Shown in pieces: positions 1,954-39,820 of a DNA stretch of 50,458 nt. Below the pieces are notes generated by a model. The model made no database searches, was not told the DNA's origin, and saw nothing but the letters and a program-made list of their open reading frames with translations. The position numbers were made by a program, and so were the translations under genes. The number at the start of each line of letters is the position of its first letter. Position 1 is the first letter of the stretch. This DNA is from a virus (lineage: Duplodnaviria; Caudoviricetes), in IMG/VR virus record IMGVR_UViG_3300045283_000155, positions 1 to 50,458 of that record. One strand, 5' to 3'.

Positions 1954-2714
1954 CCGCCGTCCTTTACCGCGGTGACGCGTTAGCAGTCCTGCGGGACTTG
2001 CCGGATGCGAGCGTTGATGGGGTGATCACCGACCCGCCCTACAGCAGCGGCGGCATGTTCCGGGGTGACCGCACAATGGACCCGACGCAGAAATATGTTC
2101 CGACGAAAGAGGTCATCAACTTCCACCCGACCTTCACTGGTGACAATCGGGACCAGCGCTCCTACGGTTACTGGTCCACGCTCTGGCTCGGCGAGTGCCT
2201 TCGGGTGACCAAACTGGGCGGCACGGTCCTCCTGTTCACGGACTGGCGCCAGCTGCCGACAACTACTGACGCGCTCCAGGCTGGTGGCTGGGTGTGGCGA
2301 GGCGTAGTCGTTTGGGACAAGACAGCGGGCATTCGTCCGAGTGCAGGCCGATTCCGGCAACAGGCGGAGTTTGTTATTTGGGGCAGCAATGGCCCCATGC
2401 CCGTGGATTACACCGAGTCATGTCTCAACGGCGTCTTCACCCATGCGCCGTTCAGAGGCAAGGAGCACATCGCCGGGAAGCCGCTAGGGCTCATGCGGGA
2501 TCTCGTCGAGATTGTGCCACTCGGGGGAACCATTCTGGATCCATTCATGGGCAGCGGCACTACTGGTGTTGCTGCTGTTCTTAAGGGCCGCAGCTTCATT
2601 GGCGTTGAACTGGCTGATCACCACTATCGGGTCGCTGAGGATCGGATCCGCAGCACCGAACGTGGTTACAGGCCACCACCGTTGCAAATGGTGCTAGGCG
2701 CGGAGATAGCCTGA
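1950..2714 (+). CDS. DNA N6-adenine/N4-cytosine methyltransferase (beta-class motif order)
   Basis: DPPY catalytic motif precedes DPFMGSGTTG SAM-binding motif; GTG start overlaps the upstream stop (GTGA). Confidence 0.93.
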   Translation: MTAVLYRGDALAVLRDLPDASVDGVITDPPYSSGGMFRGDRTMDPTQKYVPTKEVINFHPTFTGDNRDQRSYGYWSTLWLGECLRVTKLGGTVLLFTDWRQLPTTTDALQAGGWVWRGVVVWDKTAGIRPSAGRFRQQAEFVIWGSNGPMPVDYTESCLNGVFTHAPFRGKEHIAGKPLGLMRDLVEIVPLGGTILDPFMGSGTTGVAAVLKGRSFIGVELADHHYRVAEDRIRSTERGYRPPPLQMVLGAEIA

Positions 2715-3877
2715 TGTGGCCGGTGACGCAGCGGTTCATCGACACGTTAAGCCGAAGCCATGAACGCCGCTGTTACGTAGAGGTTTTGCATAACAACGTG
2801 GTTGCGACCACTCTCAACGCGACCCTGCTCCCAGATCCGGTCACGGGGAGTCTGGTGCAGTCCATCGGCGGTTCGATACAAGTCGACCGCACCGCAGTCC
2901 GGCGGAGCGGCACGGTCAACTTCGTGGACATCAGCCAAGATGCTGACGCCAACGAAGTCCTCGACCTGTTCCCCACCCTGGTGACCGAAATCCGGCCCTG
3001 GGTCGGGCTGCATTATTGGGACGCGCCCGCGGTCGACCCGCCAGGGGTCACCTCGTGGGAATACGTACCGCTCGGCACCCTCGTCGTCTCTGGTGTCGAC
3101 ACAAGCAATTACCCCGCCGTCAGTGTCGCCGGCTATGACCGGATGTGGCTGGTCGGCCCATTCGCCAACGCATTGTCGATTCCGTCTGGGACGGTGATCG
3201 CGGATGCGATGAACCTGATACTCGGGCAGCAGATCCCCACCGCCCGCCTAGACACATCCGGCATCGTCGCCACCGAGCACACCACCAGCGCCCTGTTGTA
3301 CGCGGAGCAGGACGACGCAGCCCAGAAACTGGCGGACATGGCCGCGACGACCGGCCAGGTGCTGTACGTGGATCAGATGGGTGTGTTCACCACCGACACC
3401 GAACCGTCGACGGATGACGAACCGGTCATGACCTACACCTCGGGGTATGGCGGGTCGGCGATGATGCGCCCGAAACAGGTGATCGACGCGTCCCAGGCGT
3501 ACAACAAGGTCGTATTCACCGGTGAAGGATCCGCGGTGCCACCGGTGCGTGGGGAGGCGCAGGACGACAACCCCGACAGCAGCACCTACGTCGGGAAGGT
3601 TGGGGTACGACCCTATTTTGCGTCTAGCCCGTTGATCACCACTCAGCATCAGGCGGTGCTGGCAGCGAAAACTAGGCTGCTGAATATTCTCGGCATTCCC
3701 GACACCATCAGTGTTCCGGTTCCCCCTAACCCGGCGTTGGAATCCGGGGACGTGATCATGGTGACCGACCTGTCGCAGGGCATCAACTTCCCGGTCATCA
3801 TCGACGCGTTCCCGGCCGCGCTACGTGCATCAGACGGGGAACAAGTTCTCACCTGTCGGCCGCGGGTGATTCGCTGA
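2714..3877 (+). CDS. Minor tail / baseplate hub protein
   Basis: Position; actinophage minor-tail pattern (GGSIQVDRTAVRRSG, YVPLG, YNKVVFTGE, PNPALESGDVI). Confidence 0.75.
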   Translation: MWPVTQRFIDTLSRSHERRCYVEVLHNNVVATTLNATLLPDPVTGSLVQSIGGSIQVDRTAVRRSGTVNFVDISQDADANEVLDLFPTLVTEIRPWVGLHYWDAPAVDPPGVTSWEYVPLGTLVVSGVDTSNYPAVSVAGYDRMWLVGPFANALSIPSGTVIADAMNLILGQQIPTARLDTSGIVATEHTTSALLYAEQDDAAQKLADMAATTGQVLYVDQMGVFTTDTEPSTDDEPVMTYTSGYGGSAMMRPKQVIDASQAYNKVVFTGEGSAVPPVRGEAQDDNPDSSTYVGKVGVRPYFASSPLITTQHQAVLAAKTRLLNILGIPDTISVPVPPNPALESGDVIMVTDLSQGINFPVIIDAFPAALRASDGEQVLTCRPRVIR

Positions 3878-4461
3878 TGGTGGATCTGACCCCAACCAAA
3901 CGCCGCGGAACGGTTATCAGTATCAGCATGACCCCCGCGCCGACAGTTGAGGTGCAAGTCGGTGCCGACCCATCCGTCACCGACTTCATGCCGTTCGTAG
4001 ACAGTTACGCCCCGCAAGTCGGTGACTATGTGGAACTCCTCGAGAACCAGGGCGCGTATGTTTGCCTCGGCTCGACCGGGTCGCCGGTTGCTTTCTCCGC
4101 GATCGGGCCAGGCGGCACCACCGACTGCACCACCGGTCAGACGATCGTCAGCCTTGCCGTCAACGTGACTTCCGGTCGCACGTACATGGTCGGCGGGTAT
4201 GTGCTTGGGGCTCAAATCACCGTGGCAGGCCGGCCAACCGTCAGCATCCGGGCCGGTGGCAGCGAGATAGGACCCAGCGTGCGCCCGATCGACCGGTTGA
4301 ACACCACCATCGGTGAGGTGATCACCGGCTACGCAGCCTATAGATATCTCGCGACCAGCACGGCTTCGTTGACGTTCTCGATGTTGGGTTCCGCTAGTTC
4401 GGGAGCGTTCCGGGTCGCCGCCAACGCCAGCCAAATCACCGTCGAAGACAACGGCATCTAA
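3877..4461 (+). CDS. Minor tail protein (OB-fold/spike-like N terminus plus beta-rich C terminus)
   Basis: YAPQVGDYVELL motif; coupled to the hub gene. Confidence 0.55.
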   Translation: MVDLTPTKRRGTVISISMTPAPTVEVQVGADPSVTDFMPFVDSYAPQVGDYVELLENQGAYVCLGSTGSPVAFSAIGPGGTTDCTTGQTIVSLAVNVTSGRTYMVGGYVLGAQITVAGRPTVSIRAGGSEIGPSVRPIDRLNTTIGEVITGYAAYRYLATSTASLTFSMLGSASSGAFRVAANASQITVEDNGI

Positions 4462-4474
4462 GGGAGGGGACTGA

Positions 4475-4795
4475 GTGGCGATACCGTTGGCGGATCAGAA
4501 ATCCACCGCCGGGGATCCGGGGTTCACTAACCGGATCGAACCGGCGACGGTGCGGGCCGCGTTCACACAGTTCACCGCCACCGCGAATAGTGATGCGACG
4601 ATTCAGGCGCAGCGGATCGCCCTCGCCGACAAGATCGTCACCCAGCCCGGGTTCGCGGTACCGCAGTTCGCGTACTGGATCACCACCCAGCCGGGGTTCA
4701 CGAGTGTTGATGCGATCACCGATGCGCAGATCGGCACCCAGATCAGTAACAGCTTCGACCAGGTCGCGCAAATGATCATGCCGAAACCGTCATGA
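4475..4795 (+). CDS. Hypothetical protein, possible tail fibre chaperone
   Basis: RBS GGAGGGG; small helical protein after a tail gene. Confidence 0.4.
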   Translation: MAIPLADQKSTAGDPGFTNRIEPATVRAAFTQFTATANSDATIQAQRIALADKIVTQPGFAVPQFAYWITTQPGFTSVDAITDAQIGTQISNSFDQVAQMIMPKPS

Positions 4796-5265
4796 CGCGG
4801 GTTTACCTTGACACAGAGTTCATCGAGGATGGTCACACCATCGAGTTACTATCGATCGGATTGTTCACTGACGACAACCGCGCGTTTTACGCCGAACCGG
4901 CGGAGACCGACCGGAGCCGGGCTAACGAATGGGTGCGTGAGCATGTCCTCCCGCAGCTCGGTGGCCCGATCTTGCCACGTCGGGAGATAGCGGAGCAGAT
5001 CGTCGCTTTCGTTGGTGACAAGCCCGAGTTTTGGGGTTATTACGCCGACTATGACTGGGTTGCGCTCTGCCAGTTGTATGGCACGATGATGGACTTGCCG
5101 AACGGCTGGCCGATGTATTGCCGCGACCTGAAGCAATGGTGCGATGAGCTAGGCAACCCACGCCTGCCCGAGCAAGGCGACGGGGAACACAACGCCTTTC
5201 AGGATGCTTTTTGGAATCGGAAGGTGTGGGAATTCCTCGCCGCCCGAGCAAGCAGCGCACCATGA
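4792..5265 (+). CDS. DEDDh 3'-5' exonuclease, RNase AS (Rv2179c)-like
   Basis: YLDTEFIEDG, YYADYDWV and HNAFQDA motifs. Confidence 0.85.
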   Translation: MTRVYLDTEFIEDGHTIELLSIGLFTDDNRAFYAEPAETDRSRANEWVREHVLPQLGGPILPRREIAEQIVAFVGDKPEFWGYYADYDWVALCQLYGTMMDLPNGWPMYCRDLKQWCDELGNPRLPEQGDGEHNAFQDAFWNRKVWEFLAARASSAP

Positions 5266-6209
5266 CCTGGGTGGACACGCCTTGGCCGCAGGACCCAAAA
5301 CGGTTGAAGGCCGGCGGCTACGACATCATGCGGTACCTGTGCTCCGACTGGAACACCGGCCCCGGCACATCCATGCCCAACAAACGCATCTCCCGCCCCG
5401 AACTCGACGGGTATATCGCGGCCGGGGTGGATGTTGCGGTCAACTTCGAGGACGCCGCCGACGACTACCTGGGCGGATATCAACGCGGCAAGGAGAAAGG
5501 GCAGAAGGCCGGCACGTGGATGGCGACCGAGCTCGGCTGGCCATCCGGCGGGGTGTGCTGCTCCTCGATCGACGCTGATATCGGCACTAGCTGGGGTGGG
5601 TTGGCGCAGGCGTATCAGCTCGGGTTCTCCGATGGGCTGAAATCAGCCGGCCCATATCTGCCCGGTATCTACGGGTCGTCGATCGCGTTGAACGGTGCGA
5701 ACCATGACGGTACTGCGGTCGTGTTTTGGAAAACCGCTGCCCTCTCCTGGTCGCACGGTGTTGAACCTGATGTGCTGCACATGTGGCAGAACGGGTATTG
5801 GCCGTTCGGCTCGGATGCTGATCTGAATGTCACCGTGTTGGAGCCGATGGGTTCCTACCTGAACCCCCTGGGAGACGACATGACACCCGATGACTGGGCT
5901 GCGATGTCGAAGCTGATTGACGCTCGGCTGGTCAACTACTTCGCGAACGGTGAAGGCAACCCGAAAACCGGCCGCATCGTTCAAGCATGCAATACCTCGC
6001 TGGTACCCGTTAAAGCTTTCGTAGATACGCTTGAACCGGCCGTGGCGGCGCTACCCACGCTTGCGCAGATCGACGCCCTGATATCGAACATTGGGATCAC
6101 GTTGACGGATGCGCAGGTGGCGGCGTTGGGGGCGGTGTTGGCGCAGTCCGCTCCGCCGAACTACACCGGCACGGTTGATATTCGACCTGCCCCGCCCGTG
6201 ACCCCATGA
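5262..6209 (+). CDS. Endolysin, DUF1906/GH25-like glycoside hydrolase
   Basis: IMRYL..NKRISRPE..VAVNFE..SIDAD..GIYGS..HMWQ pattern; upstream of holin; ATGA overlap. Confidence 0.78.
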   Translation: MTWVDTPWPQDPKRLKAGGYDIMRYLCSDWNTGPGTSMPNKRISRPELDGYIAAGVDVAVNFEDAADDYLGGYQRGKEKGQKAGTWMATELGWPSGGVCCSSIDADIGTSWGGLAQAYQLGFSDGLKSAGPYLPGIYGSSIALNGANHDGTAVVFWKTAALSWSHGVEPDVLHMWQNGYWPFGSDADLNVTVLEPMGSYLNPLGDDMTPDDWAAMSKLIDARLVNYFANGEGNPKTGRIVQACNTSLVPVKAFVDTLEPAVAALPTLAQIDALISNIGITLTDAQVAALGAVLAQSAPPNYTGTVDIRPAPPVTP

Positions 6210-6391
6210 CCGCCAACGCTGACTTCTACGGCGATGACGCCGAAGACATTCAGTACCTCGATTCTCTCGACTCCCGCGTCACAGTCTGGGACGTAACTAG
6301 TCGCAACTGGCGGACGCTGCGGCTACCCCTTACGACCACGACTACCCCCGTCACCTTCACGCAGATGTCTCCCTCGCCCCGTGACCACTAA
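6206..6391 (+). CDS. Small hypothetical protein
   Basis: ATGA-coupled; VWDVTSRNWRTLRL resembles the end of an SH3-like beta barrel. Confidence 0.35.
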   Translation: MTANADFYGDDAEDIQYLDSLDSRVTVWDVTSRNWRTLRLPLTTTTTPVTFTQMSPSPRDH

Positions 6392-6734
6392 GGCCCCGGT
6401 TGAGTTCAAGGTTGTTGCAGGCACATCCGGTGCCGGCGCGGGTTTCATACTCAGCCAGTTCATTCTGTGGCTACTCGGCTGCTGGGCGTGGGGCGCATCC
6501 TGGGCAGCGGACAAAGCCGTTGATGCTATAGCTGCGGTGCCGCAGCCGGCGGCTGAGATGATTGGGCTGGTTGTGACCGTGATCGGTGCCTACGTGTTCG
6601 GTTGGCTGGCGCCGCACACCCACCGACCCGCACCTGACCCGGATCCAACACCGGCACCTACCGCCCCGAAACCGATTACACTTGATCACGGGAGTGACGA
6701 TCTGCTCCACACCGAACCGCTACCCGAGGTGTAG
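6381..6734 (+). CDS. Holin
   Basis: Two hydrophobic helices, GWLAP end motif, Pro-rich tail; next to endolysin. Confidence 0.7.
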   Translation: MTTKAPVEFKVVAGTSGAGAGFILSQFILWLLGCWAWGASWAADKAVDAIAAVPQPAAEMIGLVVTVIGAYVFGWLAPHTHRPAPDPDPTPAPTAPKPITLDHGSDDLLHTEPLPEV

Positions 6735-6759
6735 CTGACCAATCCCGGGGGTGTGTCCA

Positions 6760-7569
6760 ATGGCGGACGGTGCCATACCGGAAGGCGCTGCGAGTCTAAC
6801 TGGGTGGACCCCGGTGCCGGACCCGACGAAGCTCACGACGGACGCGGTAGACAAGGTCAAGGCCGAGCTGAAGCAGATCATCGACGAACGGGACGCGCAA
6901 CGGACCCGTGATCTAGAGAATCTTCGGCAGATAATCGAGGCCCGTCTCGACGCCAGCGACATCGCCACCGACCTGCGGCTAGAAGCGATGCGGGAAGTCC
7001 GGCCGCAAACTGAGCGGCAAATCTTCCATCTGAGGGAACTACTCGAGCAGCGGTTCGCGCTGTCCGACGAGAAGTTTGAGGGTGTCGCGCAGCAGTTCCG
7101 GGAGCGGGACACCCGCACCGATCAGGCAGCGACCGCGTCGCAGCAGGCGTTGACGCAGGCTTTGATCGCCGCTAAGGAACTGGTTGGGCAGCAGAACGCG
7201 GCGAACGTCGAAGCCGCCGCCAAAGCGGAAGCGTCGACCACGAAACAGATCGATCAGATCACTGTGACGATGGCGAATGCTGAGCGGGCCAGCAGTGAAC
7301 GCACGGCGACTGTTGAGAAGTCGCTGACCGATCGTCTCCTCGAGTTGAAGGAACGTATCGACCGGGGCGAACCGGGGGCGTTCGATAAGGGTGAGAGCGC
7401 TGCGATGGTTGAGGCCCGCGCGGTCGCCGCCGCGCAGTTGGCTGTCGCTAACTCGCATCAGGGTGCGGTCGCGAACCGGATCTCCGCGAACGCCTTACTG
7501 GCCAGCGCCGTCGGGTTACTGATCACGGTCGGCGGCATCATCGTCGCCGTCATCCTCGCCCGCGGTTGA
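6760..7569 (+). CDS. Coiled-coil protein with C-terminal transmembrane helix (lysis-cassette accessory)
   Basis: Long charged helical region; hydrophobic C terminus. Confidence 0.6.
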   Translation: MADGAIPEGAASLTGWTPVPDPTKLTTDAVDKVKAELKQIIDERDAQRTRDLENLRQIIEARLDASDIATDLRLEAMREVRPQTERQIFHLRELLEQRFALSDEKFEGVAQQFRERDTRTDQAATASQQALTQALIAAKELVGQQNAANVEAAAKAEASTTKQIDQITVTMANAERASSERTATVEKSLTDRLLELKERIDRGEPGAFDKGESAAMVEARAVAAAQLAVANSHQGAVANRISANALLASAVGLLITVGGIIVAVILARG

Positions 7570-7572
7570 GCC

Positions 7573-7707
7573 ATGACGTGGCCGTGGGTCGCGCTGATCC
7601 TGGCTGGAAGCGTCGGCGGCGCGGTCCTCGGTGTGACGCTCTGGCTGATCTACCGCAAAGGCAGAAGCCGCTCAGATAAACAGGAGGATGCCAATGGTGA
7701 CCCGTGA
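7573..7707 (+). CDS. 44-aa single-pass membrane protein
   Basis: MTWPWVALILAGSVGGAVLGVTLWLIYRKGR; read by hand, below the ORF-track cutoff. Confidence 0.55.
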   Translation: MTWPWVALILAGSVGGAVLGVTLWLIYRKGRSRSDKQEDANGDP

Positions 7708-9271
7708 GATCAGCCGCCGCGCCATGCTTCAACGCTTCGGCATCGGCGGTGCCGCGCTCGGCGCAGTCACACTCCTCGACGGCGGCGGCAGGGCATTCGC
7801 CAAAGTGCCCACCGACACACCAGCCGCCGACCACCTCCCACCAGCCACCAGCAACCCCAGCGGCCTATCCAAGTTCGGGTTCATGTTCCCCCGCCTACCC
7901 GGGCTGCATGACACGGACCCGTCAATCGGTATGGACCAACTCGCCGCACTAGCCCTCTCAATGCAAGACCCCGGCGTCAACTTCCCGGCAGCGAACAATC
8001 GGGACAACACCGAATCAGCGTCGGTGTTCACCTACCTCGGCCAATTCATCGACCACGATCTGACGCTGGACCTGGAACCGCAGCCAACCGTGTTCTTCGC
8101 CCAAGACTCGGACGGGATGCTCCTCGACGATGAGGGCGGCTCGGTGTTCAACAACGAGTCGTACCGGTTCGACCTGTCCAGCGTTTACGGCGGCGGTCCG
8201 ACCCGAAGCCCGCAACTGTACGAGTCGGACCGTCTCCATTTCCGGGTGGTGGAGTCCAACGCGAACGGTGTGCGGGACCTGCCTCGTAACCCTGACCAGA
8301 CGGCGATCCTGGTTGAGCACCGCAACGATGAGAACGAGGTTATTTCCCAGGTTCACACGGCGGTCCTGAAGTTCCACAACGCTGTCGTGGATTCGGGTGT
8401 CCGCGACTTCGCGCGGGCGGCCATGCTTACGCGCCAGCATTATCAGTGGATCGTTGTGCACGAGTTCCTGCCGCACATCATCGGGCAGGACGTGGTCGAC
8501 GGCCTGCTGAACGGCACGATTCCACGGTTCTACAAGCCGACGGACATGGTGCGGCCGTTCACCCCGGTGGAGTGGTCCACCGCCGCCTACCGGTTCGGGC
8601 ATTCACAGGTCCGGCTCGCCTACCAGATCGCCCGCCCAGTGAGCGCCACCGCCGCGCCGGTCAAGGTGCAAGTGTTCAACCTGGCCGGCACCGACCTGCA
8701 CGGCGGACGCATGCTTCCGGCCGCGAACCTCATCGACTGGGGCCAGTTCGTTCCCGCCCTTCGCCGTCCCGAGAACACCGGCACCGAGGCCGGGGCGAAT
8801 GAGCATTTCAACTTCCCGCGGCAGATCGACACGTTCCTCTCCAAGAGTCTGTTCGCGTTGCCGATCGGTGGGCAGACCGGTGCCGAATCATCCGGCTCGA
8901 ATTCGTTGGCGTTCCGTAACTTCGTGCGCCAGTTCTTCTACAACACCCCAACCGGGCAGGCCGTCGCCGCGGCTATGGGTCTCCCGGTGATCAGCCCAAC
9001 CGATGCGATTGATCCGACCGTTGTGCCGGGTTTCGAGAAGGCGACCCCGCTCTGGTACTACATTTTGAAGGAGTCGGAGCTGGCTGGCGGTTTGAGGCTC
9101 GGCCCGACCGGTGGCCGCATCGTCGGTGACGTGCTCCTCGGCCTGATCGAATCAGATCCGCTCGGCATCATCCGGCAGCCGTTCACCCCGCAACCACCGA
9201 TCGCACCCACGGCGGGGCAGTTCACGATGGCTGATCTTCTTGTGTTCGCCGGGGTAGCGACCCGCCCGTAA
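7688..9271 (+). CDS. Animal-type heme peroxidase (peroxidase-cyclooxygenase superfamily) with twin-arginine signal peptide
   Basis: SRRAML Tat motif and AFA cleavage site; GQFIDHD distal His, RNDEN, YQWIVVHEFLP, RFGHS proximal His, PLWYYILKE. Confidence 0.92.
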   Translation: MPMVTREISRRAMLQRFGIGGAALGAVTLLDGGGRAFAKVPTDTPAADHLPPATSNPSGLSKFGFMFPRLPGLHDTDPSIGMDQLAALALSMQDPGVNFPAANNRDNTESASVFTYLGQFIDHDLTLDLEPQPTVFFAQDSDGMLLDDEGGSVFNNESYRFDLSSVYGGGPTRSPQLYESDRLHFRVVESNANGVRDLPRNPDQTAILVEHRNDENEVISQVHTAVLKFHNAVVDSGVRDFARAAMLTRQHYQWIVVHEFLPHIIGQDVVDGLLNGTIPRFYKPTDMVRPFTPVEWSTAAYRFGHSQVRLAYQIARPVSATAAPVKVQVFNLAGTDLHGGRMLPAANLIDWGQFVPALRRPENTGTEAGANEHFNFPRQIDTFLSKSLFALPIGGQTGAESSGSNSLAFRNFVRQFFYNTPTGQAVAAAMGLPVISPTDAIDPTVVPGFEKATPLWYYILKESELAGGLRLGPTGGRIVGDVLLGLIESDPLGIIRQPFTPQPPIAPTAGQFTMADLLVFAGVATRP

Positions 9272-9309
9272 CTGATTCATCCCCCATCTAACGCGCAGGG
9301 AGTAGACCC

Positions 9310-9801
9310 GTGGCGTTCACCGCGATCATGGCCACCCAATACACGAATCAATTGGCCACGAAGACGATTAACATGTCGACGGATACGTTCCGGGTGATTC
9401 TGTTGACGTCGGCGACTACCGGCCTGGCTGCGGCGCAGGACACTATGACGACGATGACCTCCGTTAAGGCGGTCACCGGCTTCACTGAACTCGCCACCGC
9501 AGTAGGCGGCTCCAACTACACGCAGAACGCCAACAGCACCTCGAGCGGGCAGGCCATCTCCGGATCCACCTGGACCCGCACCGGACACGTGTGGACATGG
9601 ACCGCAACCAACCCCGTCTGGACCACCGCCGGCGCCGCATTCAACCCCGCCTACGCCGTGTTCTTCACATCCACCGGCGGGACTGATGCCACGAACTTCA
9701 TCATCTGTTGGTGGGATTTCGGGGGAGCGCAGCTCGGGACTGGCGGGAACTACACGTTGACCATCGCTGGTACCGGTCTCGTCACCGCGACAAGTTCGTA
9801 G
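9310..9801 (+). CDS. Putative virion structural protein (Thr-rich beta sandwich)
   Basis: DTFRVILLTS..NPVWT..LTI pattern common in phage fibre-type genes; RBS GGGAG. Confidence 0.55.
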   Translation: MAFTAIMATQYTNQLATKTINMSTDTFRVILLTSATTGLAAAQDTMTTMTSVKAVTGFTELATAVGGSNYTQNANSTSSGQAISGSTWTRTGHVWTWTATNPVWTTAGAAFNPAYAVFFTSTGGTDATNFIICWWDFGGAQLGTGGNYTLTIAGTGLVTATSS

Positions 9802-9816
9802 GAGGTTGACCCTGTA

Positions 9817-10104
9817 ATGAGTGTCGGATACGCAGCGGATAAAGGGTCGATCGACAGTCGCGCCGGTAACCTGGCGCAGGTTTTGCGGGACAACTTTACG
9901 AATATTCAAAGCTTCCAGAAATGGCTGCTGGCAACCCCCGACGCGAATTTCACCGCGCTCGGCTACACGACGCAGGAGATTGCCACACTCAAATCCGCGT
10001 ACGTCGATCTGAACAAGCTCGCGACCATCTACCTGGGCACGGCGACGCAAGCCACCGCGTACGACTTCACCCAGTTCGCGAAGCTACTCGTCGGCGTGTT
10101 CTAA
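9817..10104 (+). CDS. Hypothetical helical protein
   Basis: RBS GGAGG; coherent ORF. Confidence 0.55.
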   Translation: MSVGYAADKGSIDSRAGNLAQVLRDNFTNIQSFQKWLLATPDANFTALGYTTQEIATLKSAYVDLNKLATIYLGTATQATAYDFTQFAKLLVGVF

Positions 10105-10110
10105 CTTCCG

Positions 10111-10803
10111 ATGCCGACACCCGTTATCGGCACCGTAGAGACGGTTGTCTCCTCCACATCGAGTACGACAGCGCTCGCCTCTGCGACTAAGACGGTGGCT
10201 ACCGGCGACATTTTCATTGCCATTGCGTGCACGGAGGACGCCAACTCGACCATCGGCGTATTCACCGACTCGAACTCCCGCCTGACGTGGACGCAATACA
10301 AGACGCTTGGCACAGCGGGCAGCGACTGTTACGTGCGTCTGTCTTACGGCAAGGTCGCTTCGACCGGCACCACTGTCGTCTCATCGGGGACGTGCACCCT
10401 GGCCCGTTGGCATTCGATGACTATCTGGCAGATAACAGGTGCGCAACTGGACACTACGCCCGCGTTCATCAGCAACGCGAACGCCGGGACAGCACCAACA
10501 GCCAACATCACGACGACCGCCGCGAACTCGCTGGTCATCGTCGGGCACGCGGATTTCACCGCGATGGCCCCGGGCACGCCCGCCTACCGAAACGGTGGAG
10601 CGCAAGACGGTATCCACGACAAGTCAACCACCGTCTATGTCGCCTACTACTACCATGCGGCGGTCGCGTCGGCTTCTACGGTGGCGATGGGTCAGACCAC
10701 GCCGACCGGTCAACATCCGTCGATGCTCGCCATCGAAGTCAAAGACGTAGGCGGCGCGACGGTCGGGCTACCGGAGATCGTGCTGCGGCAACGCATCTGC
10801 TGA
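10111..10803 (+). CDS. Putative structural/adhesin-like beta protein
   Basis: Thr/Ser/Ala-rich; GDIFIAIA and ITTTAANSLVIV segments. Confidence 0.55.
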   Translation: MPTPVIGTVETVVSSTSSTTALASATKTVATGDIFIAIACTEDANSTIGVFTDSNSRLTWTQYKTLGTAGSDCYVRLSYGKVASTGTTVVSSGTCTLARWHSMTIWQITGAQLDTTPAFISNANAGTAPTANITTTAANSLVIVGHADFTAMAPGTPAYRNGGAQDGIHDKSTTVYVAYYYHAAVASASTVAMGQTTPTGQHPSMLAIEVKDVGGATVGLPEIVLRQRIC

Positions 10804-16423: not shown

Positions 16424-16592
16424 GCCGGGTCCGCGGATGCCGCTCATCGGTATCCGCCTCGACCCCGAACTAGTCGCGAAGATTGATGAGGCGGCCGCCA
16501 TCGAGGGCAAGTCGCGGTCTGAAGTGGTGCGGGACATCCTCACCGAACGATTCACGGGGAAGGAAATACGGACGGCACCGCCAGGGCTGTGA
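16416..16592 (+). CDS. Ribbon-helix-helix (CopG-like) regulator
   Basis: IGIRLDPELVAKIDEAAAIEGKSRSEVVRDIL. Confidence 0.85.
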   Translation: MPRPGPRMPLIGIRLDPELVAKIDEAAAIEGKSRSEVVRDILTERFTGKEIRTAPPGL

Positions 16593-17409
16593 TCGCCTCC
16601 AGGAAACCGGCCGTCCCCGCCGAATCCAACTGCACATACCCCCTAGTTGTGTCCACCGACGAGTGTCCCATCACCTGCGCCACCAGAAACGGATCCCGCG
16701 TCCTCCCGTACAACGCTGTGCCGAACCGGTGCCGCAGGGTGTGCGCCGTGTGATCTATCCCCAAACTGTGCAAATGCTTGTTGATGCGTTCGGAGACACG
16801 ACCCGCGCTCGGTGCACCGGGGCCGCCGTCCATGCGTTGAAATAGTGGTCCGCGCCTCGGCATACCCGCCTCGAGCAGCTCCCCGAGCACCCGAGCCGGC
16901 AATGGCACGATTCGCACTTTGCCGCCTTTCCCGTAGATCCGCATCGCCGTCGGCGGGCCCATGTCGATCATCTCGCGGGTGAGTGCCGCTATCTCCATAC
17001 ACCGGAGTCCACAGAAGGCGGCGAGGCTGATCCAGGCCCGTTCCGGTTGCCCCGCGGTTTCGATTGCTAACGCAACGTCCCCGTCAGCCATCGGCCTCGG
17101 CAGGTGCTGGCGGATGTGCTGCGGCCGGACGAGGGCGATGGTCGGGTCGTCGCGGCGGTGCCTTGCGGTGGCCACCCACCGGATGTACTGCCCGACGTGA
17201 ACGACTTCGTTGTGCATGCTGGCGGCGGTCAGATGAAACAGTCCCATCTGCCATACCTCCAATTGTTCGCGGGTGAGGTGGGCGACGGGTTGGCCGATGA
17301 TGCGGCGGGCCCGCATGACGGCGAGGCGTCGTTCCCGGATATATCGGGGCCGTTGGTTACGGAGTCGTAGATGGTCGAGGTGCAGAGGCAGCAGTGGCTC
17401 TGAATCCAT
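16552..17409 (-). CDS. int: Tyrosine integrase/recombinase with no N-terminal arm-binding domain (285 aa)
   Basis: GLR, GKGGK, HTLRH, MGH and TRGY catalytic motifs; GGGAG RBS before ATG 17409. Confidence 0.93.
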   Translation of the reverse strand: MDSEPLLPLHLDHLRLRNQRPRYIRERRLAVMRARRIIGQPVAHLTREQLEVWQMGLFHLTAASMHNEVVHVGQYIRWVATARHRRDDPTIALVRPQHIRQHLPRPMADGDVALAIETAGQPERAWISLAAFCGLRCMEIAALTREMIDMGPPTAMRIYGKGGKVRIVPLPARVLGELLEAGMPRRGPLFQRMDGGPGAPSAGRVSERINKHLHSLGIDHTAHTLRHRFGTALYGRTRDPFLVAQVMGHSSVDTTRGYVQLDSAGTAGFLEAITALAVPSVFPSP

Positions 17410-17524
17410 CGAGGCAAGCTCCCGTGGTCGTCGTTGAGTTCCGGGCACTTTATGCGCTCCTCACATGCGCTGGCTACCGCTACTCGGCGGTAACATGTGA
17501 ACGGCATGTGGTCCAGGGCACGGA

Positions 17525-17936: not shown

Positions 17937-18296
17937 CTAGGCGATGCGGATGGCCGCCGGCGCTGCCCCTGGCGGGGAGTGCGACTGGGTGTGCGGCACG
18001 ACGTTAGCGTCGCTGTGCGACATACAAAGGTATGTCGCATTGTCCTTCGCTCGGCTCATTACCTGGGTGATGTCCTCATCCATGTAGTCCGCCACCACCA
18101 TCAGGGTGGCGGCGTCGATCGGCACCTTCCCGGACAGCCGGCGGGATATCCACGACGGGTCGGTTACGCCGATGGCGCGCATAAGATCTTGCTGCAGGAT
18201 CCGCTTGCGTGCCATCGTGGCCCGCAGCTCAGCCGCTATCGCCTGCTGCCACTGGTCTCGCGTCAACCTCTTGTGAGGTGCTCGGCGTCTTGCCAT
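17937..18296 (-). CDS. Immunity repressor (XRE-type HTH)
   Basis: ELRATMARKRILQQDL..SWISRRLSGKVP; divergent from a Cro-like gene; promoter TTGACA-N16-TATTCT 7 nt above ATG 18296. Confidence 0.85.
   Translation of the reverse strand: MARRRAPHKRLTRDQWQQAIAAELRATMARKRILQQDLMRAIGVTDPSWISRRLSGKVPIDAATLMVVADYMDEDITQVMSRAKDNATYLCMSHSDANVVPHTQSHSPPGAAPAAIRIA
18016..18039. other. Candidate attP core inside the repressor gene
   Basis: Perfect inverted repeat TGCGACATAC-AAAG-GTATGTCGCA just after the HTH-coding part. Confidence 0.5.
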
Positions 18297-18303
18297 GTGA
18301 ACA

Positions 18304-18403
18304 AGAATATGCGGTGACCGCATGTTGTCAACAGCCAATCGTTTGCTCTGAGCGCAAACACACCGTACTTGGCTTGCACACATGCGGTTAGCGCATGTAC
18401 GGT
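18304..18403. promoter_or_regulatory. Divergent promoters with three operators (18309-18323, 18343-18357, 18382-18396)
   Basis: ATGCGGTGACCGCAT, TTGCTCTGAGCGCAA, ATGCGGTTAGCGCAT; rightward TTGCAC-N18-TACGGT. Confidence 0.75.
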
Positions 18404-18409
18404 CCGCAC

Positions 18410-18844
18410 GTGGCCGGAACTTGTCGAGTTGAAGGATGTCAGCGGCCGAGCCGTTCCCGTGGCTGGTGCGACGCCCACTACCGGCGATGGGAGAGGAACG
18501 GAGACCCAGGTCCCGCGCTGATAGGACCGGCACACCGCTACGACGGCTTGCAGGTTGAGGCAGCCAGGGTTCTCGGTATCCACCAGTCCGGTATCAGCCG
18601 GAGGATGCGCGGCGAGACCGCGTGGCGGGTCAACGAGCTGGATCTACTCGCCCAGGAACTGAACGTATCTTTGGACCAGCTGCTCAGGGTCGAGCCGAGC
18701 GTGAGAAGCAGGGAAGACAGGGTTTCAGCGGCACCTTCTACGGGGGTGCGCCGCGGGCAGACCTCGGCTGGTCCCGTCCCTCTCCCTGAGCAGCCTCAAC
18801 CTGATCTTAACGGCCGTGGCAAACGCCGAAAGGCCACACCGTGA
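18410..18844 (+). CDS. Cro-like XRE HTH protein with N-terminal Cys3His zinc finger
   Basis: CRVEGC..GWCDAHY then QVEAARVLGIHQSGISRRMRGETAW. Confidence 0.75.
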   Translation: MAGTCRVEGCQRPSRSRGWCDAHYRRWERNGDPGPALIGPAHRYDGLQVEAARVLGIHQSGISRRMRGETAWRVNELDLLAQELNVSLDQLLRVEPSVRSREDRVSAAPSTGVRRGQTSAGPVPLPEQPQPDLNGRGKRRKATP

Positions 18845-19515
18845 CCCGGCCACGTCTACTGGATCTGTTCTGCGGCGCTGGCGGTGCCGCGATGGGATAC
18901 CACCGCGCTGGGTTTGATGTCGTCGGCGTTGACAACCGGCCGCAGCCGCATTACCCATTTGAATTCCATCAGCTAGACGCCTTAGAAGTTCTGCACTGGG
19001 TGATTGACCCCGTAACCGCAACAGGGCAGTACATCACGGGAGACTGGGACGCCATTCACGCGTCACCGCCTTGTCAAGACCACGTGCGGGCACCCGGGCC
19101 GGCAGCCAAACATGGAACCGGGTGGATGCTGGCTGCCACTCGAGACCGACTCCTCGCCCAAAGCTTGCCTTGGGTCATCGAGAACGTGCCCGGCGCGCCG
19201 ATGCGGTCCGACTACAAACTCTGCGGTTGCATGTTCGGGCTACGGAAACTGAAGCGCGAACGATGGTTTGAGACGTCATGGCATGCGTTTGATCTGCGGC
19301 AACCCTGTAACCATCCAGAGCCGGTCATCAGTGTCACCGGCACCGGCACGCCGACCGGAACTTGGAAGGTCTACGGCTCGCTTCGCACCGCTGACTTTGG
19401 TGCTGTGCTTGGCATTGACTGGATGAATCGCGAGGAACTATCCCAGGCCATCCCGCCCGCCTACACCCAGCTCATCGGTGAACAGTTACTCGCCCACCTG
19501 AAGTTACCCGTGTAA
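18841..19515 (+). CDS. DNA cytosine-5 methyltransferase (compact phage type)
   Basis: LDLFCGAGG, ASPPCQ, VIENV, RER motifs. Confidence 0.9.
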   Translation: MTRPRLLDLFCGAGGAAMGYHRAGFDVVGVDNRPQPHYPFEFHQLDALEVLHWVIDPVTATGQYITGDWDAIHASPPCQDHVRAPGPAAKHGTGWMLAATRDRLLAQSLPWVIENVPGAPMRSDYKLCGCMFGLRKLKRERWFETSWHAFDLRQPCNHPEPVISVTGTGTPTGTWKVYGSLRTADFGAVLGIDWMNREELSQAIPPAYTQLIGEQLLAHLKLPV

Positions 19516-35511: not shown

Positions 35512-35895
35512 GTGCGCGTGATTCGTCGGTGCGACATCTGCGGTGAGGAGTATGAGGCGGTTAAGCCGTCGTCGCGGTATTGCTCGGCTCGGTGCCGGAA
35601 TCGGAAGGCTCGGGGCGCTCCGGTAGTGGCTGAATTGCCGAAATTGGCGGCTGAGGGTGAGGTTTCGGCGCTGTTCAGACGCGATTTGGAGGCTGCGAGC
35701 CGGTTGGAGACGCCGCGGGGTGCCCTCGCGATGGCAGCAGCGCGGCGAATCGATGGGTCCACGTCGTTGATGGGTTACTCAACCCTGTTGAAGCAGGCCC
35801 GGGAGCTGTTTGACGCCGCAATCGAGGGTGCGCAGGCTGTGAACGATCCTGTGGATGAGCTTCAGGCGAGGCGTGACCGCACCCGAGCTGGTTAG
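35512..35895 (+). CDS. terS: Terminase small subunit with N-terminal zinc finger
   Basis: CDIC..YCSARC; DPVDELQARR; overlaps terL. Confidence 0.75.
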   Translation: MRVIRRCDICGEEYEAVKPSSRYCSARCRNRKARGAPVVAELPKLAAEGEVSALFRRDLEAASRLETPRGALAMAAARRIDGSTSLMGYSTLLKQARELFDAAIEGAQAVNDPVDELQARRDRTRAG

Positions 35896-37321
35896 ACCCG
35901 CATACAGGTCGGTTCCACCGTCGGCGAAGACGTTGGGGCCTATTGTCGCTGATTTGGCGGCTGATGTGGCGGGGTTTGCGCCGGATCCGGAGCAGCGGAT
36001 GGCGTTGGATGTCATGTTCGCTACTCGGCCGGATAACAGGGCGGCGGCGTTTGAGGTTGCGGTTATTTGTTCCCGCCAGAACTTGAAGACGGCCTTGTTT
36101 CAGCAGGCGGCGCTTGGTTGGTTGTTTGTGACGGATCAGCGGCTGATTGTGTGGTCGGCGCACGAGTTCCGCACCGCGCAGGAGGCGTTTCGGGACCTCG
36201 CAGGGCTGGTTGAGGGCTCGAGCTGGCTTCGGAAACGGTTGAAGCGGGTTTACGGCGGCGCCGGTGACGAGGCGATCGAGCTACTCACCGGGCAGCGAGT
36301 AATTTTCAAGGCCCGCACCTCCGGCGGCGGTCGTGGTCTGACCGGTGACAAGATTGTGTTGGATGAGGCGTTCGCGTTGCAACCAGCGCATATGGGTGCG
36401 TTGTTGCCGACGTTGTCGGCGGTTCCTGATCCGCAGGTGGTGTATGGGTCGTCTGCGGGGTTGGCGCAGTCGGCGATTTTGCGGTCGATCCGGGATCGGG
36501 GCCGGCCGGGTGATGACCCGTCACTGGCCTACATCGAATGGTGCGACGACCTGCCCGGTTCCTGCGCATCACCGTCCTGTTCGCATGAACTAACCGCGTC
36601 TGGGTGCGCTTTGGATGATCGGGACCGTTGGGCCCGCTCAAATCCGGCCCTCGGCCGGCGTATCTCGGTGGATTATGTGGCCGCGGAGCGGCGCGCGTTG
36701 CCGCCGGCGGAGTTCGCCCGTGAACGGCTCGGCTGGTGGGATGACCCGGCTGCGGCACAGATCGTTATCCCCGCTCGAGCTTGGAATGCCCGTGCCGGGG
36801 CTGAGGGCCGCCCAGACGCCCCCGTCGTGTTCGCCTTATCGGCGGCATGGCCGGACGCCGAAATGGGCTCCATAGCCGTTGTCGGCCGACGCGGCGGCGA
36901 GGTGTACGCGCAGCTGGTTGAGTACCGGCCGGGCACCAGTTGGATGCCGGCCCGGATGCGTGAACTGCAGGATGAACACCACCCAGCAGCGACCATGCTC
37001 GACGACAAAGACCCAGCAGCGTGCGAGAAGGCAGCGCTTGTGGACGCCGGGGTGAAGCTCACACCGGTCACGTCGGTGCAGGCCGGGCAGGCGTTCGGCA
37101 TGATGATCAGCGCGGTGATGGGTGATCAACCCTATCTGCGGCATTACGGCCAGGCTGAGGTTGCTGCGGCGGTGGCTGGTGCAACGAAACGGCCGCTCGG
37201 GGATGCGCATGTGTGGGCCCGGAAAGGCCCAACCGATATCAGCCCGGTAGTTGCGTTCACCGATGCCCTGTACGGGTTGGCGACCCGCACCGCGCTGACA
37301 CCGTTCGTGCTTCTCGGATAG
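35873..37321 (+). CDS. terL: Terminase large subunit
   Basis: RQNLKT Walker A variant, WSAHEF, GRG, VLDEA, SNPALG, FARERLG, DISP. Confidence 0.93.
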   Translation: MTAPELVRPAYRSVPPSAKTLGPIVADLAADVAGFAPDPEQRMALDVMFATRPDNRAAAFEVAVICSRQNLKTALFQQAALGWLFVTDQRLIVWSAHEFRTAQEAFRDLAGLVEGSSWLRKRLKRVYGGAGDEAIELLTGQRVIFKARTSGGGRGLTGDKIVLDEAFALQPAHMGALLPTLSAVPDPQVVYGSSAGLAQSAILRSIRDRGRPGDDPSLAYIEWCDDLPGSCASPSCSHELTASGCALDDRDRWARSNPALGRRISVDYVAAERRALPPAEFARERLGWWDDPAAAQIVIPARAWNARAGAEGRPDAPVVFALSAAWPDAEMGSIAVVGRRGGEVYAQLVEYRPGTSWMPARMRELQDEHHPAATMLDDKDPAACEKAALVDAGVKLTPVTSVQAGQAFGMMISAVMGDQPYLRHYGQAEVAAAVAGATKRPLGDAHVWARKGPTDISPVVAFTDALYGLATRTALTPFVLLG

Positions 37322-38137: not shown

Positions 38138-38460
38138 CTCGATATCTGGTGGACATCGACGAAGAACTCTTAACAGAGCAGCCGTCCTTAGATTTTCCTG
38201 CCGACTGGCGAATCGTCGAAATTGGCCCCGGGGTGGGGCCTCACCTTCGACGATGTGTCGTTGAGGACGGCAGTGCCCCGGCTGAGCTTGAAGGGCACCT
38301 CATCGACCCGACGATGCAGCGCGGCGCCGACGGCACCGTCAAAGTCGTATCTAGGACAGACCGCGGGTTCAGCGTCCCCATCAACTGGAAACCCGGCCAA
38401 GTTGAGCACATTCGGGCGTTACTCCGAGAGGCTGCTGATGGGGCTGTTGGAGCGGGTTAA
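38134..38460 (+). CDS. Hypothetical protein
   Basis: GGAGG RBS; ATGA-coupled. Confidence 0.5.
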   Translation: MTRYLVDIDEELLTEQPSLDFPADWRIVEIGPGVGPHLRRCVVEDGSAPAELEGHLIDPTMQRGADGTVKVVSRTDRGFSVPINWKPGQVEHIRALLREAADGAVGAG

Positions 38461-39820
38461 CACCCAGGTCGGCCCAGTCGCCGGACGGCCCCTCAACCTG
38501 TCCCTGGACGAATACGCGTCCTGGTTCTCGTATGGGGGCGCGAACTATCCGCTGCTGCAAACCACCTACAGCGGCATCGATCAGGAACGGATCGCGTGGA
38601 CCGCTGACGCGGCAGCGAAACGTTCCGGCCCGGTGTTCGCGTTGGTGTTGGCGCGGATGCAGGTTTTTTCACAGATCCGCTTTCAATGGACGATGTTCTC
38701 CGGTGCGCAGCCGGGGGACTTGTTCGGCACCCGCGATTTGAAGGTCCTCGAAAACCCGTGGCCAGGTGGGGTAACCGCCGACCTACTTGCCCGCATGGAA
38801 TGGGACGCCTCCGCCTCCGGGCAGGCATACATCAGGCGGAACGCCAACACCCTCCACCGCCTGTATCCGGCGTGGGTGACCATCGCGATGGGCTCACAGG
38901 AGGACGCCGAATCACCCTGGACCGCACCGGACACCACCGTAGCCGGCTATCTGTGGAACCCGCCCAGCGGTAAAGCCCGGTTCTTCACCCCAGAACAAAT
39001 CTGCCACTACGCACCGATCCCCGACCCTGACCGGCATTTCCTCGGCCAATCATGGATCACACCCGTGTTGCGCGAGTTGCAGGGCGATCAGGCGTCAACG
39101 GAGCACAAGTACCGGTTTTTTGAGAACGCAGCGACTCCGAACCTGGCGATCAAGTTCGACCCGTCCATCGGTGTCGACATGGTCCGCCAATTCAAAGAAC
39201 TGTTGGAGACGGAGTACCGCGGCGTCGCCAACGCCTACAAAACGATGTTCCTCGGTGGCGGCGCTGATCCGGTAACGATCGGATCCACGTTCAAAGACAT
39301 GGACTACGCCGTCGTGCAGGGCCGCGCCGAGTCCAGGTTGGCCGCAGCAGCCGGTGTCCCCCCGTCGTGGGTCGGGTTCGCTGAGGGCCTAGAAGGCAGC
39401 GCCCTTAACGCTGGCAACTTTGGTGCAGCGCGGCGTCGGTTCTCTGACGGGACGATGGCCCATTTGTGGGGTAACGCGTCGTCCTCGTTGCAGCAGATCA
39501 TGCAAACCCCGCCCGGCGCCTCCCTCTGGTATGACGACCGGATCCCGTTCATGCGGGAAGACGCCTCCGACATTGCTGCTATCCAAACAGCTGAAGCAGC
39601 GGTTATCGCGTCACTGATCCGTGAGGGCTTCGAACCGCCTTCAGTTGTGAAAGCCGTCAAAAACAATGACTGGACAGCGTTGAAGCATTCCGGCCTGCTC
39701 AGTGTGCAGCTGCAACCACCGGGCTCGGCAACTAAACAACTAGACCCGGGGATGCCTGATCCGATGAAGATGCCCGACATGGCGGGAGCCAACGGGAACG
39801 GGAATGGGGCACGTAAATGA
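38438..39820 (+). CDS. Portal protein (HK97-like)
   Basis: FLGQSWI, FFENAATP, NAYKTMFL, AAAAGVPP. Confidence 0.9.
   Translation: MGLLERVNTQVGPVAGRPLNLSLDEYASWFSYGGANYPLLQTTYSGIDQERIAWTADAAAKRSGPVFALVLARMQVFSQIRFQWTMFSGAQPGDLFGTRDLKVLENPWPGGVTADLLARMEWDASASGQAYIRRNANTLHRLYPAWVTIAMGSQEDAESPWTAPDTTVAGYLWNPPSGKARFFTPEQICHYAPIPDPDRHFLGQSWITPVLRELQGDQASTEHKYRFFENAATPNLAIKFDPSIGVDMVRQFKELLETEYRGVANAYKTMFLGGGADPVTIGSTFKDMDYAVVQGRAESRLAAAAGVPPSWVGFAEGLEGSALNAGNFGAARRRFSDGTMAHLWGNASSSLQQIMQTPPGASLWYDDRIPFMREDASDIAAIQTAEAAVIASLIREGFEPPSVVKAVKNNDWTALKHSGLLSVQLQPPGSATKQLDPGMPDPMKMPDMAGANGNGNGARK

Follow-up and report, generated by a model that had tools for sequence, protein, structure and literature searches.

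Animal-type haem peroxidases belong to the peroxidase-cyclooxygenase superfamily, which is marked by a distal signature X-G-Q-X-X-D-H-D-X and a second signature X-R-X-X-E-X, and which includes short single-domain bacterial members with the same signatures, the peroxicins and peroxidockerins (families 5 and 6); a review of the superfamily calls the physiological role of these short bacterial forms "completely unknown" (PMC4420034). A gene for an enzyme of this superfamily lies in the DNA described here, the 50,458-nucleotide stretch that makes up the whole of IMG/VR virus record IMGVR_UViG_3300045283_000155 (Duplodnaviria; Caudoviricetes) and that is referred to below as the window. The gene occupies positions 7694 to 9271, downstream of the lysis genes, and on the evidence of motifs, predicted fold and conservation it is very probably phage cargo that encodes a functional haem peroxidase destined for export.

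The best solved match is CyanoPOX of Cyanobacterium sp. TDX16 (PDB 8S6C), which is likewise a single domain of ~500 residues; according to its description, iodide is the substrate oxidised best, aromatic compounds are oxidised too, the same Asp/Glu pair is present and the haem of the protein as purified is bound non-covalently (PMC11776367). CyanoPOX and the phage enzyme have the same distal Gln/Asp/His/Asp, Arg-x-x-Glu, proximal His/Arg/Asn/Arg and calcium-loop positions, but only ~20% identity, and the CyanoPOX gene is chromosomal whereas the phage gene specifies a twin-arginine signal. The mammalian lactoperoxidase (LPO) and myeloperoxidase (MPO), chordate peroxidases of family 1, share the fold (Z 22-23.5) and the catalytic and ester-forming Asp/Glu residues at 15-17% identity; they are secreted and use H2O2, as would be expected of the phage enzyme. 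The clade to which the window's enzyme belongs is set apart by its near absence from species-representative genomes and by its enrichment on phage contigs.

On the phage side, the closest described systems are the morons (inserted cargo genes) and exported-enzyme genes of actinophages, likewise single genes inserted at a gene boundary of the late operon and absent from near relatives; other cargo known from them (glycosyltransferase, methyltransferase, epimerase) is found beside homologues of the peroxidase. Unlike them, the peroxidase has no PHROG family, no match in GenBank phages and no promoter or terminator of its own seen in 6000-10200. BFVD has just two proteins of this fold at E <= 0.001 (2 of 213 matches), the haem peroxidase of Orpheovirus and the alpha-dioxygenase of Yasminevirus, and these are proteins of eukaryote-infecting giant viruses of amoebae, not of phages, with 12-15% identity to the phage enzyme.

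The gene and its predicted active site

The sequence-only reading that first drew attention to this gene placed its start at ATG 7688 (527 amino acids (aa); open reading frame (ORF) 7688-9271 on the plus strand). ATG 7694 is more likely the true start, because it stands at the usual 6-nucleotide (nt) distance from the Shine-Dalgarno sequence and because the public gene call (P0001) also has 525 aa. Residues are numbered here in the 527-aa form.

7682..7687, plus strand: Shine-Dalgarno sequence AGGAGG, read from the sequence; abuts ATG 7688 and lies 6 nt before ATG 7694
7694..9271, plus strand: haem peroxidase gene, 525 aa from ATG 7694, stop codon TAA at 9269-9271
7694..7801, plus strand: signal peptide, with n-region S9-R10-R11-A-M-L, Gly/Ala-rich h-region and c-region GGGRAFA
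8039..8059, plus strand: distal motif G118-Q119-F-I-D122-H123-D124 (halide-binding Gln, ester Asp, catalytic His, calcium-binding Asp)
8159..8179, plus strand: calcium-site loop S158-Y-R160-F-D162-L-S164, aligned by hidden Markov model (HMM) with CyanoPOX T140/W142/D144/S146 (ligands according to PMC11776367)
8321..8332, plus strand: R212-N-D-E215, catalytic Arg and second ester-forming Glu
8588..8605, plus strand: proximal motif Y301-R302-F-G-H305-S, haem-ligand His and propionate-binding Arg
8918..8929, plus strand: N411...R414, the Asn that partners the proximal His, and a second Arg that binds propionate

Assignment to the animal-type haem peroxidases, proposed at the outset from the motifs GQFIDHD, RxxE and RFGHS, is confirmed by Pfam, by profile comparison and by fold. 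Pfam PF03098 (An_peroxidase) matches at E 4.2e-11, with 42.5 bits where the gathering threshold is 25, spanning residues 155-316 only, and is carried by 118 of 119 relatives among the matches listed; NCBIfam has no family for the whole protein. A search of the PDB with the single protein gave no match at E <= 0.01. Solved structures were reached only by a family profile, built from an alignment of 43 members, which finds CyanoPOX (8s6c) at E 3.2e-22, DdPoxA (6erc) at 6.6e-12, MPO at ~2e-9 and alpha-dioxygenase at 1.2e-4.

The AlphaFold model (predicted local distance difference score, pLDDT, 87.6; predicted template-modelling score, pTM, 0.88) confines disorder to residues 1-50. Foldseek matches it to 8s6c at E 3.5e-17, and VIA-align superimposes it on 8s6c with Z 25.9 (root-mean-square deviation 3.7 A over 400 residues), on DdPoxA with Z 24.7, on MPO with Z 23.5, on LPO with Z about 22 and on cyclooxygenase (COX) and alpha-dioxygenase with Z 21-22. 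Eighty chains reach Z >= 8, and all of those listed belong to the peroxidase-cyclooxygenase superfamily.

In the HMM alignment to 8s6c, GQFIDHD corresponds to WGQFLDHD, RNDE to RSNE (R199, E202) and YRFGHS (residues 301-306) to YRVGHT; H305 and N411 fall on CyanoPOX H294 and N376, and R302 and R414 on R291 and R379 (as sequence positions only). RNDE is part of a longer RNDENE motif at residues 212-217, which is followed by HTAVLKFHN at 223-231. The signatures given for the superfamily in PMC4420034 are all present. The phage gene is thus predicted, from sequence and model, to encode a peroxidase-cyclooxygenase superfamily enzyme with a complete active site.

That enzyme looks functional and under selection, because its catalytic residues are identical across all its close relatives: Q119, D122, H123, D124, R212, E215, R302, H305, N411 and R414 are unchanged in 47 of 47 rows (the window, seven locus translations and those of proteins P0002-P0040 that have at least 400 aa). 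Among them are D122 and E215, the counterparts of the Asp and Glu through which MPO and LPO bind their haem by ester links, and the retention of this pair had been rightly noted. In the other 95 rows of the same alignment, Asp occupies position 122 in 83 rows and Ala in 12, and Glu occupies position 215 in 80. The residue that follows the ester Glu is Asn216, at what we take to be the position of the sulfonium-forming Met243 of MPO; MPO-type oxidation of chloride is accordingly not expected.

The export signal

Twin-arginine (Tat) signals conform to a consensus S/T-R-R-x-F-L-K, followed by a weakly hydrophobic h-region and an A-x-A cleavage site. The N-terminus of the phage peroxidase reads S9-R-R-A-M-L-Q, next FGIGGAALGAVTLL, then DGGGRAFA and, beyond the predicted cleavage site after A38, KV (SRRAML is residues 9-14; AFA and KV together are residues 36-40). 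Judged by this consensus it is presumably a good Tat signal, and its c-region contains a basic residue.

Relatives retain these features. The pattern of paired arginines and hydrophobic residues is found in 37 of the 40 closest proteins; by eye P0008 has RRGFF, and P0022 and P0029 are N-terminally truncated calls that start at an MFP motif and offer no N-terminus to judge. The c-region GGGRALA, basic residue included, is strikingly conserved among the same 40. Viral homologues with a Tat signal are L002-L005, L010, L173, L174, L181-L183, L187 and L189; those with a Sec or lipoprotein signal are L175-L180, L184, L186, L188 and L191-L193. Thus every viral homologue with a readable N-terminus carries one or the other kind of signal, except for L185, which is not clear-cut. 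Some homologues from Chloroflexota genomes (L019-L021) begin with MSTHSCV..., have no signal peptide and are apparently cytoplasmic members of the family.

Insertion after the lysis genes

The neighbourhood of the gene is as follows.

5262..6209, plus strand: lysin-like glycoside hydrolase (Rv2525c-like domain), PF08924 at 46.6 bits; start taken from the L202 homologue
6381..6734, plus strand: holin-like 117-aa protein with two hydrophobic segments, judged from its sequence; no family match
6751..7569, plus strand: coiled-coil protein with a C-terminal membrane helix, the last gene before the insertion; no family match; L202 homologue at 1399-2034
7570..9295 (about), plus strand: inserted segment, delimited by blastn/tblastx synteny, L202 ORFs and junction sequences
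7573..7707, plus strand: 44-aa ORF whose translation has a single hydrophobic helix ahead of an acidic, Lys/Arg-rich tail
9310..9801, plus strand: conserved phage gene for a 163-aa protein (phrog_644), the right border of the insertion

By sequence comparison the peroxidase is an inserted cargo gene (moron) placed after the lysis genes, because near relatives of the phage carry a hairpin spacer where the window carries the 44-aa ORF and the peroxidase. A search of viral contigs with the lysin gene gave four such relatives, L202-L205, at 76-86% aa identity. L203 ends before the junction and is uninformative; the peroxidase is absent from the other three of three. L202 has, in order, the lysin gene, the holin-like gene, the coiled-coil gene, a 101-bp spacer and then the gene for the 163-aa protein. 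In L205 the holin-like gene is followed at once by this spacer and the 163-aa gene, and in L204 the spacer comes after the coiled-coil gene, shortly before the contig ends. The spacer of ~100 bp (L202 2035-2135, L204 about 4140-4245, L205 about 3080-3197) folds as a strong hairpin (-42.4 kcal/mol, z -3.7, with 0 of 200 shuffles as good) and could function either as a U-less terminator or in regulation. In the window it is replaced by the 44-aa ORF and the peroxidase, and homology restarts at the ribosome-binding site of the 163-aa gene, whose product has ~87% aa identity to L202 2136-2627 and to L205.

The peroxidase is on the same strand as its neighbours, with a gap of 38 bp to the next gene, and its G+C content at third codon positions (GC3) is 0.81, compared with 0.65-0.81 for 19 other phage genes measured. 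A Mycobacterium prophage has a 'lysin A' that is 31.6% identical to the lysin-like protein; the coiled-coil gene, used as a query, found no relatives among viral contigs. The sequence-only reading had put the peroxidase directly after the lysis cassette. It does follow the lysin, holin-like and coiled-coil genes, with the 44-aa ORF (7573-7707) intervening. This ORF overlaps the peroxidase start by 14 nt, lies within the segment absent from L202, L204 and L205, and could be a lysis accessory or a co-inserted partner; judged by coordinates, it is not seen upstream of homologues in other phage loci, and no conserved partner gene of the peroxidase was found there. The same variable region of L202, a relative without peroxidase, encodes at 2537-3679 a further exported cargo enzyme, in which an N-terminal membrane helix and a Thr/Pro-rich linker precede a GH12 glucanase domain.

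The two junctions differ in their support. An RNA-library contig from a separate study bridges 8849-9334, from the end of the peroxidase into the next gene, at ~91% identity, which supports the right junction, as it exists in a related phage. The left junction has no support independent of the window assembly: the only DNA run with the whole stretch is possibly the record's own source. (The DNA occurs in soil metagenomes.) The worry raised in advance about misassembly at the borders is thus addressed by independent sequence on the right side only. In one soil metatranscriptome, ~91%-identical contigs cover 7703-7971 and 8849-9334 and the rest of the stretch is uncovered; these contigs show neither level nor strand and may reflect DNA carry-over, so no conclusion about expression is drawn from them. 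An RNA-library contig runs from 6211 straight to 7573 and so bypasses the holin-like and coiled-coil genes; the joint has only 29 letters on one side and was not used, but if real would represent a relative in which the lysin gene is directly followed by the 44-aa ORF.

Recurrence in uncultured phages

Searching IMG/VR with the single protein gave 12 loci at 54-59% identity, and searching with the family alignment gave 41 distinct loci, 33 of them at 41-59% identity and 8 distant or partial, including three named giant-virus metagenome-assembled genomes (MAGs). (L195, L197, L198 and L200, mostly contigs of named giant-virus MAGs, encode distant homologues at 29-33% identity, in line with the two giant-virus matches in BFVD.) Up to four genes per side were read with PHROGs and Pfam around 23 distinct loci, a set without seven loci that have the L005-identical protein, L010, L178, L190 and L194-L201. 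Head, connector or tail genes stand beside the peroxidase in 15 of the 23:

L002: homologue with capsid/connector genes on one side and a Neck1-type gene on the other
L004, L182: flanked by Neck1 and a tail gene
L005 lineage: flanked by gpD-like (decoration) and gpE-like (capsid) genes
L183: flanked by adaptor and major tail genes
L180: flanked by terminase and portal genes
L189: flanked by portal and capsid genes
L003: upstream of major tail and tape-measure genes
L173, L175, L177, L184, L185, L187, L191: beside other head, connector or tail genes

No structural gene was matched among the scanned neighbours in the remaining 8 of 23 (L174, L176, L179, L181, L186, L188, L192 and L193). Homologues in other phages lie on the same strand as head, neck or tail genes and 18-150 bp downstream of them, or overlapping them. 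Other cargo is also found nearby: a glycosyltransferase gene adjoins the homologue in L003, L173, L183 and L187, and genes for a nucleotide-sugar epimerase and a methyltransferase adjoin it in L093 and L187. These neighbours, at L003 2331-3389, L173 7055-8761, L183 9825-11222, L187 9629-11378 and L093 2379-4466, stand within strings of virion genes. In L175 (1693-7233, 1847 aa) and L179 (3994-7221, 1076 aa), both contigs of lower G+C (51%), a giant protein with an alginate-lyase domain is followed by a phrog_16701 'peptidase' whose gene overlaps the start of the homologue.

With the peroxidase region blanked, and with a shared protein defined by >=30% identity over >=80 aa, the 33 loci and the window fall into 11 groups that have no other protein in common (14 groups if two shared proteins are required). 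Even where proteins are shared the location differs: the window has three proteins in common with L189 and two with L185, and the peroxidase is placed differently in each. Because of these 11 unrelated groups and of the different positions in protein-sharing phages, the gene is judged, from sequence, to have moved among unrelated phages.

Near absence from cellular genomes

The family at large is extensive, with >4,767 matches among 8,000 candidates scored and 5,358 cluster representatives at E <= 0.001. The proteins closest to the window's, P0002-P0040 at 50-71% identity (P0002-P0006 at 60-71%), come from metagenome sources only, with none from NCBI among the matches listed. Species-representative genomes, in a scan that was not exhaustive, gave at least 566 related stretches, and among the best 80 of these only one exceeds 41% identity, a homologue at 53% in a Gaiellaceae MAG, where it has an ordinary cellular context (transporters, response regulator, BtpA). 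When 401 genomes were sampled evenly from the phylum of that MAG (including three unpublished genomes, used nowhere else), 42 of them had a match at E <= 1e-20, none above 47% identity except the same MAG (57% by this method).

Phylogeny separates the lineage in the same way. In a 142-row FastTree tree, from which P rows shorter than 400 aa and four short genome matches were left out, the window belongs to a clade of 48 rows (support 99) that includes all four viral lineages and not one genome row. In a 225-row FastTree tree (without L010, L199-L201 and P rows outside 400-700 aa; FastTree supports are local) its clade of 145 rows (support 99) consists of 119 metagenome, 25 viral and one genome row, and within this the Tat subclade of 83 rows (support 99) consists of 70 metagenome, 13 viral and no genome rows; the other 74 of 75 genome rows fall elsewhere in the tree. 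The viral-database search and the tree of homologues that had been suggested for this gene thus yield 41 loci and a clade that holds one of 75 genome rows. On these sequences the lineage appears to be almost restricted to phages, with the metagenome rows counted irrespective of whether their context is phage, prophage or chromosome (some come from contigs 63-150 kb long).

The peroxidase matches no PHROG family, and 50,697 GenBank phage records, from which the window's own record was possibly screened out, gave no match by tblastn of the protein or by megablast of the gene or of the 6.3-kb head region. A full-text literature search found nothing on phage-encoded members; supplementary tables of auxiliary metabolic genes (AMGs) from soil viromes, which could list PF03098, were outside its scope, and the one AMG paper found cites KatG only. 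No phage gene of this kind seems to have been described so far. The original remark that this is not familiar as normal phage cargo therefore agrees with PHROGs, GenBank and BFVD; as to whether such genes are common and already described in phages, the gene is recurrent (41 IMG/VR loci), and a description was not found in the databases and literature searched. What is new is the setting (export-tagged, almost phage-restricted and mobile among soil phages); the enzyme family itself is known.

The phage genome

The window is the whole virus record, rated 100% complete with terminal repeats present, and has an exact 127-bp terminal overlap, as given by circular assembly. By gene content it is a complete, temperate, siphovirus-type phage, because terminase, portal, capsid, tail, integrase and repressor-like genes are matched in PHROGs; with the lysin gene, these leave the description of the peroxidase as phage-encoded well founded. 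PHROG matches place the following genes, and head-tail adaptor and major tail protein genes are also matched.

2714-3877: tail protein
16552-17448, minus strand: tyrosine integrase
17937-18533, minus strand: repressor-like gene
35855-37321: terminase large subunit
38222-39820: portal
39817-42165: protease-capsid fusion in a single ORF of 782 aa (head maturation protease at residues ~10-190, major head protein at residues ~316-742)
46457-49597: tape measure

The phage is actinophage-like in its terminase, which is closest to that of Gordonia phage Eyre (44.8%) and next to those of Mycobacterium phages (42%); by organism name, the 1,858 records that match it are mostly phages of Mycobacterium, Gordonia, Arthrobacter, Propionibacterium and Microbacterium. 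G+C content in the window is 58-68%, and no tRNA genes were found in it. Two DNA methyltransferase genes are present (1917-2714 and 18841-19515), one of which (phrog_67, E 1.5e-64) is wedged between tail genes. A gene for an Rv2179c-like 3'-5' exoribonuclease (phrog_2259 'RNase H', E 1.7e-48) lies at 4792-5265, just upstream of the lysin gene.

Proposed mechanism and alternatives

The peroxidase gene would be transcribed with the rightward late genes: its start overlaps the upstream ORF, the downstream gap is 38 bp and no promoter- or terminator-like site is seen in 6000-10200. The protein would fold and take up haem in the cytoplasm, be exported by the Tat system of the host and, to judge from the motif, be cut after Ala38. 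Outside the membrane it would use H2O2, the distal His123/Arg212 pair forming compound I, and Asp122 and Glu215 could form ester links to the haem, as in lactoperoxidase. By analogy with CyanoPOX its substrates might be iodide, bromide, thiocyanate or phenolics, and either the products or the consumption of peroxide would act on the envelope, the matrix or released particles around lysis. Expression late in lytic growth is slightly favoured over expression from the prophage. The complete chain (a late-expressed, exported haem b peroxidase, acquired as a moron, which oxidises halides or phenols extracellularly around lysis) stands at an even chance, and any single biological role assigned to the enzyme is less likely than not.

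Several considerations weigh against this proposal. The Tat profile TIGR01409 scores 12.2 bits on the N-terminus (residues 8-28), below its cut-off of 16.7, and of 43 aligned family members it picks up 10 at E <= 0.1, the best at 1.4e-4; the sequence-only reading of a Tat signal holds as to RR motif and layout, which relatives keep, but stays under the profile cut-off, so that the call rests on motif and relatives. The sister group is predicted to have Sec signals, and Tat export is then no necessity of the fold. CyanoPOX as purified has non-covalent haem (PMC11776367), so retention of the Asp and Glu is no proof of ester links, and the chemistry suggested for the clade is by analogy with CyanoPOX. 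No source of H2O2 is encoded near the peroxidase gene, and hypohalous products would harm the phage's own particles too. As to timing, the phage is temperate and the gene lies in a variable stretch between lysis genes and integrase, where prophage-expressed genes are often found. A moron's hallmark of its own promoter and terminator was not seen (0 promoter-like and 0 terminator-like sites in 6000-10200); the consensus used is of the E. coli type and may miss actinobacterial promoters, which leaves room for independent expression in the lysogen.

The foremost alternative is lysogenic conversion, in which the prophage would express an exported peroxidase that protects its host from H2O2 or, like lactoperoxidase, makes antimicrobial hypohalite or hypothiocyanite against competitors. 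The integrase and repressor-like genes are consistent with it, as is the location in the variable region between lysis and integration functions; the replaced strong-hairpin spacer, maybe a transcription boundary, is a typical moron site, and the ~91%-identical RNA-library contigs over parts of the gene are a weak further sign, DNA carry-over being possible. The gene is nevertheless flanked by no promoter- or terminator-like site by the consensus just mentioned, and in at least 15 other phage contexts the homologue is embedded, with short gaps, in same-strand strings of head, neck and tail genes, which fits late expression. Since homologues are mostly in virion-gene modules, late lytic expression is suggested as much as benefit to the lysogen. 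Conversion is possible, on the unlikely side.

Attack on the surroundings of the cell is less probable again. Here the peroxidase would be an auxiliary metabolic or matrix-attacking enzyme that oxidises phenolic or humic matter, polysaccharide or Mn(II) and so frees particles or feeds the infected cell. The finding of the phage DNA in soil metagenomes, the membrane-anchored or secreted GH12 glucanase encoded a few genes away in the peroxidase-less L202, and the homologues that follow alginate-lyase-domain giants in L175 and L179 point in this direction, and MopA is a precedent for a haem peroxidase that oxidises Mn(II) (PMC6247904). MopA-type enzymes, on the other hand, are large multidomain calcium-binding proteins, whereas the phage enzyme is a single domain of ~490 aa; polysaccharide enzymes adjoin the homologue in two of 23 contexts and occur in one relative, and all these substrates are candidates.

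That the protein is a fatty-acid dioxygenase or cyclooxygenase-like enzyme instead of a peroxidase is very improbable. The fold is held in common (alpha-dioxygenase and COX at Z 21-22, with an alpha-dioxygenase profile match at E 1.2e-4), but X-G-Q-X-X-D-H-D and R-X-X-E are complete in the phage protein, cyclooxygenases (family 4) being without them according to PMC4420034, and peroxidase matches are far stronger (E 3.2e-22 as against 1.2e-4). Of the functions that had been suggested for the gene (peroxide removal, halide oxidation, fatty-acid oxygenation or cross-linking of matrix or protein), fatty-acid oxygenation is least likely, because the distal and Arg-x-x-Glu peroxidase motifs are complete and the alpha-dioxygenase match is much weaker.

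Host DNA joined by misassembly, or a decaying passenger gene, is the least probable explanation of all, since, although the sole DNA run with the whole stretch is maybe the record's source and the left junction lacks independent support, the contig closes on itself with its 127-bp overlap, GC3 matches the phage, the RNA-library contig bridges the right junction, many other phage contigs have homologues, the reading frame is uninterrupted and every catalytic residue is conserved.

Implications

Horizontal spread among unrelated soil phages, varied positions within virion modules and near absence from cellular genomes together suggest a further, frankly speculative reading, which we consider improbable as a whole: a phage-specific lineage of exported haem peroxidases, co-expressed with virion genes, that would carry out an oxidative step outside the cell. 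Candidates for that step, at the same low likelihood, are peroxide-driven, dityrosine-type cross-linking or oxidative loosening of the host wall or matrix, and hardening or protection of freshly released particles. If this were true, phages would have an enzymatic activity that is not known from any of them.

Phage cargo is dominated by hydrolases, transferases and nucleotide enzymes, and the gene described here adds an oxidative haem enzyme to it. Bacterial members of the animal haem peroxidases are widespread; the sub-lineage identified here travels on phages with an export signal and an intact predicted active site, and often stands amid strings of head and tail genes. A single gene, present in one and absent from another of near-identical phages, makes a simple test system, and the enzyme could be of interest for biocatalysis if it were as robust as CyanoPOX. 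More broadly, the finding suggests that soil phages may alter the redox chemistry around lysing cells.

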